IMG/VR virus record: IMGVR_UViG_2534681834_000006
Length of the DNA: 64,000 nt
From: a virus
Lineage: Duplodnaviria > Heunggongvirae > Uroviricota > Caudoviricetes
Reading direction: 5' to 3' (one strand)
Of this stretch, positions 7,708 through 14,385 are shown piece by piece. The position numbers and the translations under genes are program-made. The first letter of the stretch is position 1; the number at the start of each line of letters is the position of its first letter. Under the pieces are notes generated by a model that saw nothing but the letters and a program-made list of their open reading frames with translations, was not told the origin of the DNA and did no database searches.

Positions 7708-8319
7708 TCAAAGAGAAAAGCTAAAGCCCAGAAGGGAAGCCAAAGAACTTGAGGATTGGTTAAACGTGCTGTGCAATGCGAAGGTCATTGGGAATGACTT
7801 AAATTCAGTAACCTGATCTCGCGCATAGGTGACATCGCCGGTAGTGACCGGGAATACCGTCATCTCATTTTCCAGTTTGGTTAAGCCGGAAGACAGCAAC
7901 CGATAAATACGCACATTGAGCAAATATTTAGACGGTATATTCCCGGTACCGTCCGGATTGATCACCCGACTTTTTGCCGTCTTAAACCAGTCCAAAACGA
8001 GGCCATCAACGGTATCCCTGACCATCATTGTTATCTGCCCAGGCGAACGCTCCGTTGGTTGAAGGATATTCCCTCCGCCGATTTTAATCGTTTCATATTC
8101 GATGCTGTAATCGTGGTAGGTAATATCTTTGGCAAAGAAGTCTGCCCCCTCCAGTCCATCAACTTCGACAGAGAACTGCCATCCTTGCGCGAACAGCATT
8201 TTGTTCATGATGATTGACGTCAGCTTACCAACTTCCCGTTCACCAACGCCGGAGCCAAATAATGTCGTCGTTAATGCCGAAGATACATAAGACTTTACTG
8301 AAGCAACATTAAACCCCAT
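7708..8319 (-). CDS. putative tail tube protein
   Basis: 203-aa ORF in tail operon; size and composition consistent with tube proteins; assignment tentative. Confidence 0.4.
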   Translation of the reverse strand: MGFNVASVKSYVSSALTTTLFGSGVGEREVGKLTSIIMNKMLFAQGWQFSVEVDGLEGADFFAKDITYHDYSIEYETIKIGGGNILQPTERSPGQITMMVRDTVDGLVLDWFKTAKSRVINPDGTGNIPSKYLLNVRIYRLLSSGLTKLENEMTVFPVTTGDVTYARDQVTEFKSFPMTFALHSTFNQSSSSLASLLGFSFSL

Positions 8320-8329
8320 ATCAGCCCTC

Positions 8330-8920
<591 letters not shown>

Positions 8921-8976
8921 TTAACAGATTCTACGAGTTGTCATTTGTGACAGTATGCTCGCAATCGTAGTGATTA

Positions 8977-9516
8977 CTACCACCAACTGCTAGCTTTCTT
9001 CTCTCTAGCTTTTCCTTCGCTTTGCAGTAAATCTTTACTTCCTGTAGAAATATTTCTATTTGCATCAGCCTCAGACTGAATTACATCTGTCTTAGCTGCT
9101 CTCTCCTTCAACTCCTGCTCTATAAAATCGTTTTCTCGCTGGACACGAGCCGCTTTTGCTTGCAGTTCGAGTTTCATGCTTTCGAGTTGCAGCTTGCGAA
9201 GCTCATCCTCATAAGCTTGATCTCGCTTCTTGTCATTTGCTAGCTCGGCTTCTCGTTTCGCTCTACGTTCATTTTCTGCAGCAACACGCTGTTTTTCGCG
9301 TGCAGCAGCGGCAGATGCTGCTTTTTCTCTTCTAATACGTTCAGCTTGTGCTTGTTGGCGAATAAGTTCTTTTCTGGCATCCTCAGCTTGCTGCTCTTTA
9401 GCTCGCCCTTCATTTTCCGCTTGAGCAATAGCAGCAATTTGACTTTGCAACGAGTTAGCCAAGGCAGTGCCTACACTAAACGTAGAAAAGATTAGAAATA
9501 AAATAATTTTATTCAT
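8977..9516 (-). CDS. secreted coiled-coil protein (TolA-like Lys/Glu/Ala-rich repeats)
   Basis: N-terminal signal peptide MNKIILFLIFSTFSVGTALA; long charged helical region. Confidence 0.6.
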   Translation of the reverse strand: MNKIILFLIFSTFSVGTALANSLQSQIAAIAQAENEGRAKEQQAEDARKELIRQQAQAERIRREKAASAAAAREKQRVAAENERRAKREAELANDKKRDQAYEDELRKLQLESMKLELQAKAARVQRENDFIEQELKERAAKTDVIQSEADANRNISTGSKDLLQSEGKAREKKASSWW

Positions 9517-9519
9517 AAA

Positions 9520-10041
9520 TTATTTCTTTTCTGGACAAGTAGCATTTGGCTGAATTCGAGTTTCATTATCTTTAGTTGAAATAAGCACAGCAAGCCCCGT
9601 TGTAAACTGGCATGCTTTACCAACTTGAGTTGAAGTGAACACCTTAGTTCCTTCTTTATAAGTCAGTGAAACACCTTCAACAATTGTTTTATCACTAACC
9701 AAAGAACCAGCCGCTGCACCAAGAGCCGCACCACCAGTACCGCCAGCTACAGCACCCAGTGTCGATGTGCCTTTAACATTATAACCGGCAACGCCCCCAG
9801 CAACAGCTCCCAGTACCGCACCAAATGTCTGTGCCGCTTCTTTATTAGCTTTATTATCAACTTTCACTTTAGCTGGAAGCACAGAGATAATATTGACTGT
9901 CTTTGTTTCCTGCTTCGAATTCAATTGAGCGGTATCATAAACATCGGCAGCATAATCAGCACCGCTAGATTGACACCCAGAAAGAAGAATTGCAGATACA
10001 ACAAGAGCGCATAAAGTATACTTTTTAGACATAAGAATCAT
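9520..10041 (-). CDS. lipoprotein with glycine-zipper domain (SlyB/Pcp-like)
   Basis: lipobox LLSGC after signal peptide; GAVAGGVAG...GAVAGGTGGAALGAAAGS glycine zipper. Confidence 0.65.
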   Translation of the reverse strand: MILMSKKYTLCALVVSAILLSGCQSSGADYAADVYDTAQLNSKQETKTVNIISVLPAKVKVDNKANKEAAQTFGAVLGAVAGGVAGYNVKGTSTLGAVAGGTGGAALGAAAGSLVSDKTIVEGVSLTYKEGTKVFTSTQVGKACQFTTGLAVLISTKDNETRIQPNATCPEKK

Positions 10042-10322
10042 CCCAGAAAAACAAAAACCGGCGAGAAGTTACCACAAGAACGGAAAGTAAACAAGAATAC
10101 TCCCATTGACTTATATCAATTAATCAACTTTTTATAAGCTATCCCTAACTTATTGTGTATAGCTGAAAAGTCAGAGACAAGTTCACCATCTGCATTATTT
10201 CTTAAGTTAATAGTTTATTGCTAACTTAATTTATGTATCGACTATTGATATCCATCTTAAAGTTACAATATCCATCTGCATTATTTTTCATCACAAATAA
10301 TATATCTATTGCACGACACTAA

Positions 10323-10339
10323 TCTGCTCTAATAAATTT
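10323..10339 (+). promoter_or_regulatory. C1 repressor operator-like 17-mer (Op51 position, upstream of immI)
   Basis: tcTGCTCTAATAAATTT, 2 mismatches to ATTGCTCTAATAAATTT. Confidence 0.6.
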
Positions 10340-10399
10340 GTATTTTTAAGTCGCGAATGCTATCTTTTTGCATCATATTGACCTTTTAATCGTTCAGGC

Positions 10400-10650
10400 T
10401 TATAGTTTCGCCGTCGTAGCAAATTCTGCGACCGGGTTTAGCAGCCTGAATACTTACGCGGACAACCGCAGATTTCCGATATTGCGGTATTTTTGTGTCC
10501 GTAAACCACGTTACGCCCGAATTATGGTGGGGCGTGATGGGGAGGCTTCGGCCTGCTGGTTTCGTAAGTGCCAGTCTGCTAACCCCGTCACGTCCTGCCA
10601 CCTGTTTAGCAGCGGGTCGCAGGTTGTTTATCAACTTACGAGGCCGTAAC
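10400..10650 (+). ncRNA. immI leader; candidate location of c4-type antisense RNA (not resolved)
   Basis: non-coding structured leader between operator and icd; exact RNA ends cannot be set from sequence alone. Confidence 0.2.
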
Positions 10651-10651
10651 T

Positions 10652-10873
10652 ATGGTTAATGCCAATCCTTGCGCACGCCAAGAATTCATCTGGCGTTTCT
10701 ATTCCTGCAAAAAACACCACTATCACTTCGTCATCGCAGCAACAGAAGACGAAGCACGCTCTCAATTGCCTGATGGCCCCTGCATTTTTACTGCCCGTTT
10801 TTCAACTAACTCGCGCAATTCACTTAGTTACTGGAACCTCCCCTTCTCTGCCGACGTTCAGGGGGTTTTATGA
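10652..10873 (+). CDS. icd: Icd-like small protein overlapping ant start
   Basis: 73-aa ORF ending in ATGA overlap with ant1 start; matches P1 immI arrangement. Confidence 0.6.
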   Translation: MVNANPCARQEFIWRFYSCKKHHYHFVIAATEDEARSQLPDGPCIFTARFSTNSRNSLSYWNLPFSADVQGVL

Positions 10874-11913
10874 AAAAACCTCTCGTCACCCGTAATGACA
10901 TAGCCGAAGCGATCGCCCTGCATACTGCCTGTATGCCGACACGGGAGATCCCCGGCGCAATTGCCAACTATTTCATGATAACCAGACGTTTTTATACCCG
11001 AACAGATAAGGCTGTGATCAACAGGCTACTGATAGCCGAGATCAGGGATTATTTGATTGAACAAGGACGTCTACGTTACGCAACGGTGGCAGCAGAAATG
11101 AGAAAGGAGGCACATAGAATGACCAGTAATAATTTGAATGTTAAAAAACCAGCATCTGTTGCTTCAGCTACGCCATCACCAGCTGTGAATGTTATCTCCA
11201 ACACTGGAGACACAATCGACAGCCAGACGCTGTTAAAGATGGTCAATGAAGCGCGTAAGTTATGTGGGGAACCAGAGGTTCGGAACAACAAATTCATCAA
11301 AAAAATACTCGACGAATTAGAAGGTGAGGACGGTTACACAAAAAGTGCAACCGTGCCGCCAGGTGGCGGTACGCCTATGGTTGTCATAACCATGACCTAC
11401 AAACAAGCCCTGCGAGTCGCCGCGCGCGAGTCAAAAGCAGTCCGCCGTTCGCTGATCGACAAACTGGAAGAATTGCAGCAGGCAAACTCCCCTGCCCCAT
11501 CGATCCCCCAAACATTACCAGACGCTCTACGCCTGGCTGCCGAGTTGGCAGAACAGAAAATGCAGTTGGAACAACAGCTGGTGGCCGCAGCCCCTAAAGT
11601 CGATTTTGCCGACCGGGTATCAGCGGCTAATGGAATCCTGATCGGGAACTTTGCAAAGGTCGTTGGACTTAAGCAAAACGCCCTTTTCTCATGGTTGCGC
11701 CAGAACGGCATTCTCATGGCTTTTGGTGCGCGCAAAAACGTACCGCGCCAACAGTACATCAACGCCGGGTATTTCACGGTGAAAGAAGTGGTGCTGGATG
11801 ATGAAAATGGCTACCAGATACGGCTGACGCCCCAATTAACGGGTAAAGGCCAGCAGTGGTTAACTCGCAAGCTACTTGATGCTGGTTTGTTAAAACCAGT
11901 AGCAATAGGTTAA
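10870..11913 (+). CDS. ant1: antirepressor Ant
   Basis: 347-aa ORF; C-terminal ~130 aa shared with KilA C-terminus (Ant/KilA-C domain). Confidence 0.75.
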   Translation: MKKPLVTRNDIAEAIALHTACMPTREIPGAIANYFMITRRFYTRTDKAVINRLLIAEIRDYLIEQGRLRYATVAAEMRKEAHRMTSNNLNVKKPASVASATPSPAVNVISNTGDTIDSQTLLKMVNEARKLCGEPEVRNNKFIKKILDELEGEDGYTKSATVPPGGGTPMVVITMTYKQALRVAARESKAVRRSLIDKLEELQQANSPAPSIPQTLPDALRLAAELAEQKMQLEQQLVAAAPKVDFADRVSAANGILIGNFAKVVGLKQNALFSWLRQNGILMAFGARKNVPRQQYINAGYFTVKEVVLDDENGYQIRLTPQLTGKGQQWLTRKLLDAGLLKPVAIG

Positions 11914-12906: not shown

Positions 12907-13752
12907 ATGCTGGCTAAAGTCACTTTCCTGAGCTGTATAACGATGAGCGATTTTACTTTTTCTGGCTATGAATTGGCCTGCTTTGTAACACACTCCGGTC
13001 TATCCCGTAGCGCCGGGCATATCTTGTCGCAATGTGCAAATCTCGCGGCAACAACCAGTGAATACTTCATTCACAAGCCTCACCGCCTGATCGCGGCAGA
13101 AACTGGTTATAGCCAATCAACCGTCGTTCGTGCATTCCGTGAAGCTGTAAACAAAGGAATCCTGTCTGTAGAGATTGTTATCGGCGATCACCGTGAACGT
13201 CGCGCTAACCTGTACCGGTTTACACCATCCTTTTTGGCCTTCGCACAACAAGCCAAAAATGCGCTGATTGAAAGCAAATTAAAGATCTCTTCAGCGGCAA
13301 CCAAGGTTAAAGCTGTTCTCGCTAAGACATTGGCTTTATTTAATTTTTTATCCACACCCCCATGTCAAAATGATACCCCCTCCCCCTGTCAGGATGACGT
13401 GGCAATAAAGAATAAGAAGTCACAAGTTAAAAAAACAAAAAGATCAGTTTCCGGCGGTGCCGGAACGACCAGACTCAAAAAATTGACTTCATGGATCGCT
13501 GAGGCAAAAGCAAAGGCTGACAATCTGCGGTTATCCAAAAAACGCGCTCAAAAACATGAGTTCAAGCAGAAAGTAGAGGCGGCAGCGCGGAAATATGCTT
13601 ACCTGAAGGACAAGCGTTCTCCTGATATTGGCGGGATATCAAACTTCGATAATCTGCCGCATTGCATGACGGTAAACGAAGCTCTTAATGCGGTTTTAGC
13701 CAAAAATAAAGATAACGAACAATGGGGTATACCGGCAGGATTCAGAGGGTGA
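12907..13752 (+). CDS. repL: lytic replication initiator RepL
   Basis: 281-aa ORF directly after kilA in an operator-controlled operon, as in P1. Confidence 0.7.
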   Translation: MLAKVTFLSCITMSDFTFSGYELACFVTHSGLSRSAGHILSQCANLAATTSEYFIHKPHRLIAAETGYSQSTVVRAFREAVNKGILSVEIVIGDHRERRANLYRFTPSFLAFAQQAKNALIESKLKISSAATKVKAVLAKTLALFNFLSTPPCQNDTPSPCQDDVAIKNKKSQVKKTKRSVSGGAGTTRLKKLTSWIAEAKAKADNLRLSKKRAQKHEFKQKVEAAARKYAYLKDKRSPDIGGISNFDNLPHCMTVNEALNAVLAKNKDNEQWGIPAGFRG

Positions 13753-14048: not shown

Positions 14049-14229
14049 TACAATCGTTGCGGGTGCTTGAGGCTATCTGCTTCAGGCATTACCCGAAAAG
14101 CAGATAGAAGAAAGCCCCAGATAACATTACGCGTCCTGCAAGACGCTTAACATTAATCTGAGGCCATATCTATGCTTAGCATACGTAGATTAGCCTCTTA
14201 CCGACCAAAAGGTCAAGGAGAAGCAGGCT

Positions 14230-14385
14230 ATGAAGCAGCATAAAGCGATATTAATCGCTCTGATCGTCATCTGTTTAACCGTCATTGTGACGGCACTGGT
14301 AACGAGGAAAGACCTCTGCGAGGTACGAATCCGAACCGGCCAGACGGAGGTCACTGTCTTCACAGCCTACGAATCTGAAAGGTAA
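14230..14385 (+). CDS. hok: Hok/Gef family type I toxin (51 aa)
   Basis: MKQHKAILIALIVICLTVIVTALVTRKDLCEVRIRTGQTEVTVFTAYESER; classic Hok/Gef motif; not in ORF track because shorter than 60 aa. Confidence 0.85.
   Translation: MKQHKAILIALIVICLTVIVTALVTRKDLCEVRIRTGQTEVTVFTAYESER

Follow-up and report, generated by a model that had tools for sequence, protein, structure and literature searches.

A yfgH-yfgI-like pair of envelope genes at the sim hot-spot of P7-type phage-plasmids

The DNA considered here, a stretch of 64,000 nucleotides from the virus record IMGVR_UViG_2534681834_000006 (termed 'the window' below, at its full length), belongs to a P7-type P1-like phage-plasmid. Between its immI region and its tail genes lie two adjacent leftward genes, one for a lipoprotein and one for an exported helical protein, which correspond to P7 upf50.5 and upf50.0; the segment that contains them is 99-100% identical to P7, SJ46, RCS47, JL22 and other P1-like phage-plasmids. 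Only 3 nucleotides separate the stop of the lipoprotein open reading frame (ORF) from the start of its neighbor, which suggests that the two genes are translationally coupled. The principal features of the locus are the following:

8928-8947, minus strand: late promoter LPsit of the tubA/pmgC-tub-pmgB-sit operon (P7 and P1 annotation); left recombination boundary
8949-10324, minus strand: exchangeable cassette of 1.38 kb between the boundaries of P1 homology, the P7-type allele of the sim hot-spot
8977-9516, minus strand: yfgI-like gene (P7 upf50.0), 179 amino acids, Sec-exported DUF5384 protein
9457-9516, minus strand: signal peptide of the yfgI-like protein (residues 1-20)
9520-10041, minus strand: yfgH-like gene (P7 upf50.5), ORF of 173 amino acids, SlyB/YfgH-family glycine-zipper outer-membrane lipoprotein
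9694-9834, minus strand: glycine-zipper helical hairpin (residues ~70-116) with overlapping G/A/SxxxG/A/S (GxxxG-type) motifs, from a motif scan
9973-9975, minus strand: lipobox Cys23, invariant in 37 homologs
10323-10339, plus strand: C1 operator Oc4 of the immI (c4-icd-ant) operon (P7 annotation, and a consensus search with 2 mismatches); right recombination boundary

The GenBank record of P7 labels upf50.5 an 'outer membrane lipoprotein of unknown function' and upf50.0 a 'membrane protein of unknown function', marks signal peptides on both, and records similarity to Escherichia coli K-12 proteins; the genes and their envelope nature were thus already on record. What is new here is the link to the biology of YfgH and SlyB, the strict coupling of yfgH to yfgI, the existence of a mobile clade of such pairs, and the exactness with which the pair replaces sim. 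The initial annotation of this DNA missed both the P7 entries and the core chromosomal counterpart of the pair, while its assignment of export signals to both proteins agrees with the P7 record and with the sequences described below. The label 'DNA methyltransferase', which the lipoprotein bears in the RefSeq records of P7 and SJ46 and in PHROG 1277, is a misannotation.

The lipoprotein opens with MILMSKKYTLCALVVSAILLSG/C (the slash marking the cleavage site), in which a lipobox LLSG/C is followed by Gln at position +2 and Ser at +3, with no Asp; because of the Gln at +2, sorting to the outer membrane is expected. Its homologs are 170-172 amino acids in length, which makes the ATG at 10032 (M4), with a product of 170 amino acids, the probable true start. 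By BLAST it is 67% identical to K-12 YfgH. A search of the PDB with the single sequence returned noise only, and SlyB was reached only with a family profile, built from 37 YfgH-like sequences, which matches SlyB over its full length (positions 9-162 of 171 profile positions, E=2.1e-9). Sim and SlyB were both among the relatives considered in the initial annotation, and of these SlyB was matched whereas Sim was not. The monomer model, a succession of strand, helix, helix and strands predicted at low confidence (a predicted local distance difference test score, pLDDT, of 55), has SlyB (7ojf_A) as its best PDB match in Foldseek (E=1.4e-5, probability 1.00, template modelling (TM) score 0.56-0.60). 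With its lipobox, its two-helix hairpin set between beta segments and its full-length homology, the lipoprotein is a member of the SlyB/YfgH family.

The correspondence with SlyB (PDB 7OJF/7OJG) extends to the order of elements, namely lipobox, DVY motif, beta strand, glycine-zipper hairpin and C-terminal beta domain. The two differ in that identity is only ~24%, that the C-terminal domain of YfgH-type proteins contains a conserved pair of Cys residues, and that YfgH-type loci, those covered by the gene-order comparison, have an obligate DUF5384 partner gene. Weak Pfam matches of the lipoprotein to Rick_17kDa_Anti and TraT were also found. Membership of the TraT family is ruled out by a PF05818 score of 23.1 bits against a cut-off of 31 and by an insignificant Foldseek match (9fs5_A, E=0.51, TM score 0.27), and the YfgH family profile does not match TraT. 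A search of NCBIfam gave no useful match for the pair.

The partner protein begins with MNKIILFLIFSTFSVGTALA/N, a typical Sec signal peptide with cleavage at A-L-A/N. It matches Pfam DUF5384 (PF17358) at E=3e-43 and 147.8 bits, against a gathering cut-off of 25, is 47% identical to K-12 YfgI by BLAST, and contains the conserved motif TDVxQSxADxxRN. (By BLAST the K-12 homologs are yfgH and yfgI, and not yfjS and yfjT.) In the AlphaFold model the 159 amino acids of the mature protein form a single helix from residue 2 to 158 (157 residues, ~24 nm, pLDDT 90). The N-terminal half of this helix is charged, rich in Ala and Gln and only 11% hydrophobic, so that it looks like a single-alpha-helix or TolA-domain-II-type spacer, and the conserved C-terminal half has weak heptad character. 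The family is small, with 314 clusters at 50% identity among 1.84 billion representatives. No YfgH-YfgI fusion occurs among the 314 cluster representatives; a DUF5384 match of 409 amino acids, considered as such a fusion, has an unrelated repeat stalk as its partner. Two aromatic residues end 114 of the 182 full-length representatives (SWW in upf50.0), and in four of the 182 (P0265, P0279, P0308 and P0331) the sequence continues into a C-terminal transmembrane helix followed by Lys-rich residues, an addition that would place the conserved C-terminal end at the inner membrane in those four. These observations hint at YfgI rods oriented with the C-terminus toward the inner membrane and perhaps spanning the periplasm.

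Judged by sequence, the phage genes are paralogs of the core E. coli operon yfgH-yfgI, which lies beside guaA on the chromosome in 5,420 of the 5,426 complete E. coli genomes that were searched by BLAST. Phage and chromosomal pairs share both protein families, gene order, tight spacing, export signals and length (172 and 179 amino acids in E. coli, 170-173 and 179 in the phage). They differ in sequence (67% and 47% identity), in clade, in the region upstream, and in location, the phage copies lying at a phage-plasmid hot-spot instead of on the chromosome. Coupling of the two genes is strict: among 78 loci on contigs sampled at one genome per species, from Gammaproteobacteria and a few Alpha- and Betaproteobacteria, 76 are informative, and in 75 of those a yfgH-like gene lies directly upstream of yfgI on the same strand. 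Such coupling predicts that the two proteins act jointly.

Neighbor-joining trees of the two proteins are congruent and place the mobile clades apart from the core clade of Enterobacteriaceae. The P7-type copies group with an E. albertii P1-like copy and one island copy; the sister of this group comprises terminal copies in prophages of Salmonella and E. coli, beside tail-fiber genes. A second mobile clade contains a 115-kb Enterobacter contig and a ~102-kb Salmonella contig, the latter carrying a Rep3 replication gene and interpreted as an SSU5-like phage-plasmid. The mobile copies are under purifying selection, with ratios of nonsynonymous to synonymous substitution (dN/dS) of 0.05-0.10 where synonymous sites are unsaturated, so that they encode functional proteins and move as a pair. 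The sole non-punavirus match in a phage collection, TL-2011b, is not cargo: the prophage record ends in a flank of host yfgG-yfgH-yfgI (NC_019445.1, 41360-42935), and the YfgH within it is again mislabelled 'DNA methyltransferase'.

The boundaries of the cassette are sharp. Homology to P1 stops at ~8948, just beyond the -22 box of LPsit, and resumes at ~10325 within Oc4, so that the 1.38-kb cassette stands in for the P1 segment that carries simA-simB-simC, the P1 genes for superimmunity and superinfection exclusion. The initial annotation had found no obvious correspondence to sim, in orientation or in proteins. As to the proteins this holds, for the best blastp match of either one to SimA, SimB or SimC has E=0.13 over 30 residues, and Pfam content differs; the orientation, however, does match, P1 simABC lying in the same interval between Oc4 and LPsit and on the same strand, and all of the proteins concerned are exported. 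That annotation also placed the pair at the head of the tail operon, which is right in that the pair lies upstream of tubA/pmgC, tub, pmgB and sit on their strand, and imprecise in that LPsit lies downstream of the pair. Sim-type cassettes share the 5' end of simA beside Oc4, whereas the P7-type cassette brings its own upstream region of 280 bp. P1 SimA itself (52 amino acids; locus L002, 4271-4429) is identical to the N-terminus (MRKLLLPLLFMAGTVNAASSVKEICTDYTKYLGHVY) of exported proteins of 212-215 amino acids at other such loci (L004, 1544-2191; L007, 8910-9548) and then diverges, so that P1 simA looks like a truncated remnant of cassette recombination.

The flanks of the locus (7950-8948 and 10325-11320) were used to search PLSDB and retrieved 629 plasmids. 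The P7-type cassette is present in 167 of these plasmids, every one at least 99% identical, and is the most frequent single allele at the sim hot-spot among those counted; full sim was found in 137, and a different pair (215 and 158 amino acids) in 81. A further type is a four-gene set that includes an SH3-domain protein. In the translations read for four other cassette types, signal peptides or membrane segments mark nearly every protein; the fifth type, from E. albertii, was read only as a gene list. That E. albertii P1-like cassette is a composite (L008, 4032-8298), comprising an ORF of 107 amino acids, a yfgH-like gene (88% identical), a yfgI-like gene, an ORF of 118 amino acids, a YfjT-family gene (PF27224) and an SH3_3 protein of 389 amino acids; modules at the hot-spot appear to be mixed and matched. 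When the cassette was used as the query (8977-10300), all 168 PLSDB matches were at least 99% identical, while a query that included the flanks gave mostly 95-99%, which suggests a more recent origin, or a greater mobility, for the cassette than for the backbones that host it. A published survey of P1-like phage-plasmids places simABC among eight variable regions and does not describe the P7-type allele (PMC9603915).

The cassette also holds its own noncoding DNA, and structured RNAs flank the locus on either side:

8903-8937, minus strand: hairpin between the pair and tubA/pmgC, with a 12-bp stem (-30.3 kcal/mol, z=-6.1, RNA fold)
10042-10322, minus strand: the cassette's own AT-rich upstream region, 33% GC against ~47% in the flanks
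10101-10123, minus strand: conserved noncoding block TTAATTGAYATnnGTCAATGRGA with the imperfect palindrome TTGATATAAGTCAA; candidate operator or promoter element
10186-10200, no strand assigned: direct repeat copy 1, CCATCTGCATTATTT (coding-strand sequence AAATAATGCAGATGG)
10272-10286, no strand assigned: direct repeat copy 2, overlapping the -10 element of the sole leftward promoter-like match
10520-10605: C4 RNA (Rfam), with its a1/b1 targets at 10400-10452

By alignment, the 281 bp upstream of the lipoprotein gene have no counterpart in P1. The block at 10101-10123 is kept between the window and the E. albertii allele, despite the saturated synonymous sites of the genes themselves, and a palindrome similar to TTGATATAAGTCAA lies upstream of a Salmonella prophage copy. 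The initial annotation had assigned a direct repeat to a C1 operator region. The 15-nucleotide repeat CCATCTGCATTATTT does occur in exactly two copies in the window (no third is found even when 2 mismatches are allowed), and by a rough estimate the chance of an exact pair of 15-mers in ~280 AT-rich bases is <1e-3. Both copies, though, are in cassette DNA; a consensus search found no C1 operator in 10042-10322, and the only operator nearby, Oc4, lies outside the interval that had been described. Elements related to the repeat (GCAGATG/GATGGATA) are partly retained in the E. albertii P1-like allele.

With the late promoter downstream of the pair, and no C1 operator in the 281 bp between the start codon and Oc4, the two proteins are probably made in the lysogen, and expression is probably autonomous to the cassette. 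The hairpin downstream may insulate the late operon, or terminate transcription ahead of it. P1 keeps its stem, differences being confined to the loop, and its 5' arm holds the -10 element of LPsit (TAGAAT), so that late transcripts would be without the stem and only read-through from the cassette would form it.

The host proteins provide a guide to what such a pair might do. According to a 2025 preprint, E. coli YfgH is localized to the outer membrane, protects against sodium dodecyl sulfate (SDS) and ethylenediaminetetraacetic acid (EDTA), and is both induced and required when LpxC, LptD or BamA is depleted; BamA, LptD, OmpF/C/A, LamB and TonB-dependent receptors co-purify with it, its loss is suppressed by mutations in clsA, and SlyB-like rings are predicted for it by AlphaFold3 (bioRxiv 10.64898/2025.12.22.696046). 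YfgI is not mentioned in that study. For YfgI (DUF5384) the literature search returned only the sensitivity of a yfgI mutant to nalidixic acid (PMC3536626); the term 'DUF5384' occurs in no paper of the searched literature, and nothing was found there on phage-borne copies of yfgHI.

Taken together, these data favor, at a rough probability of 0.6, a reading in which the pair works like YfgH and SlyB, its outer-membrane ring and YfgI rod together reinforcing or remodeling the outer membrane of the lysogen. A yfgH-yfgI copy of phage lineage occupies the sim hot-spot as an accessory ('moron') cassette and would be transcribed leftward from its own AT-rich upstream region. The lipoprotein, sorted to the outer membrane, would insert its glycine-zipper hairpin there (by homology to SlyB and YfgH) and oligomerize into rings that corral outer-membrane proteins, lipopolysaccharide and phospholipid patches, and upf50.0, as an exported helical rod of ~24 nm, would work with the ring on its periplasmic side. 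The host would thereby acquire a second, diverged YfgHI system, which might help it to tolerate envelope stress and perhaps limit the entry of other phages. The suggestion of an envelope-modifying module, made in the initial annotation, stands on the homology to host envelope proteins.

Several considerations weigh against this reading. The hosts already possess a core yfgHI, which makes the added value of a second copy less evident, and a more specific role in exclusion is favored by the fact that sim is otherwise found at the locus. The roles proposed for the phage copies are those of the host proteins, transferred by homology, and the lipoprotein was modeled as a monomer with low confidence (pLDDT 55). 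Scans for promoters and terminators across 8850-10450 performed no better than on shuffled sequence: the one leftward candidate (10308 to 10280) is weak and no better than chance, and no convincing sigma-70 promoter can be assigned by eye upstream of the pair, so that expression in the lysogen is something we infer.

The most substantial alternative is that the pair is a dedicated superinfection-exclusion device, in which ring and rod replace Sim and block DNA delivery, or mask receptors, against P1-like or other phages, colicins or conjugation. Cor, Llp and Bor, small outer-membrane lipoproteins of temperate or infecting phages, block receptors or protect the host and are often encoded beside tail-fiber genes, the classic site of cor/bor/lom-type morons; the yfgHI-like copies of other prophages also adjoin tail-fiber genes. 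(Each of Cor, Llp and Bor, for its part, is a lone small protein that either binds a single receptor, FhuA, or makes the cell resistant to serum.) The precise replacement of simABC in the same orientation, the mostly exported products of the other cassettes inspected at the locus, and the binding of host YfgH to outer-membrane proteins that serve as phage receptors all point the same way. TraT offers a precedent, in that plasmids have co-opted this chromosomal family of ring-forming outer-membrane lipoproteins for surface exclusion (PMC11733297). TraT of the F plasmid (PDB 9FS5) resembles the phage lipoprotein, as the latter is proposed to be, in its outer-membrane location, oligomeric state and helical membrane domain, and it too comes from a chromosomal family taken up by mobile elements; it differs in size and in the lack of a partner gene, quite apart from the failed Pfam and fold comparisons. 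Against exclusion, the pair has no sequence similarity to SimA, SimB or SimC, neither protein matches a PADLOC-DB family at E<=0.1, position by itself is weak evidence, and the core homologs are genes of stress protection that are not known to act on phage, no paper in the literature search tying yfgH or yfgI to phage resistance. Superinfection exclusion, a candidate function in the initial annotation, thus remains plausible on positional support, and we hold it only tentatively. Equally tentative is a more far-reaching version, in which a mobile yfgH-yfgI lineage has been captured repeatedly by temperate phages and phage-plasmids and serves in the P7 type as an armor, of ring lipoprotein and periplasm-spanning rod, that functionally replaces Sim as an exclusion device.

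Other roles are less probable. A classic complement-resistance gene under SdiA control is rck, and a conversion of the host that lets it resist serum or complement, or survive in the gut, in the manner of TraT, Bor and Rck, would fit carriers that are mostly gut or livestock E. coli and Salmonella, as well as the sub-threshold similarity to TraT in Pfam. The S. Typhi orthologs of yfgHI, srgIL, are likewise regulated by SdiA and acyl-homoserine lactone (AHL) (PMC11619404). Membership of the TraT family fails, however (23.1 bits against 31; fold E=0.5), and the family occurs also in many bacteria that are not host-associated, so that this role is unlikely. Slightly less likely still is a part in the lytic cycle, in which the two proteins would keep the outer membrane intact up to lysis, or would act like spanins or against them: an outer-membrane lipoprotein with a periplasmic helical protein superficially recalls o-spanin and i-spanin, and the pair lies just upstream of late genes, but it does so outside a lysis cassette and upstream of the late promoter. 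The lipoprotein, moreover, is a SlyB homolog of 150 amino acids, unlike the short and proline-rich o-spanins, a cleavable signal takes the place of an N-terminal anchor in the helical protein, the operon is retained in core bacterial genomes without any phage, and knock-down of the P1 sim genes at this locus by CRISPR interference left plating unaffected (PMC10695390). That the two proteins are tail components of the virion, as the automated labels 'minor tail protein' and 'tail tip protein' in OR339795.1 and the adjacency to tail genes would have it, is most improbable. Both have export signals and are homologous to envelope proteins of the host, namely YfgI and the SlyB-like outer-membrane lipoprotein YfgH, which speaks for the opposite, in line with the view taken in the initial annotation; the pair is absent from P1, which builds the same tail, and the locus is interchangeable.

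In E. coli and Salmonella, P1-like phage-plasmids commonly carry resistance genes. If the cassette alters the outer membrane of the lysogen, the fitness of the host under bile, detergent or antibiotic stress could change, as could its susceptibility to other phages (a matter of relevance to phage therapy) and competition among P1-like elements. The cassette also offers a natural gain-of-function handle on YfgH and YfgI, of which YfgH has been characterized only in the 2025 preprint. Were the armor and exclusion version true, it would parallel the co-option of TraT by plasmids and provide a first function for DUF5384/YfgI.

Two further observations concern other parts of the window. A sok antitoxin RNA (Rfam RF01794, 114.9 bits) lies at 14061-14235 on the plus strand, just after repL (12907-13752); as this is the variable rlfA/rlfB region of P1, a further P1 hot-spot appears to have been taken by an addiction module of the hok/sok type. 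A second lipoprotein ORF (33760-34587, plus strand, 275 amino acids), which begins with MKKTLISAAIILGSLCLTG/C and is unrelated to the YfgH family by hidden Markov model (HMM) comparison, is situated among three tRNA genes at 32256-32328, 32334-32406 and 34615-34687.

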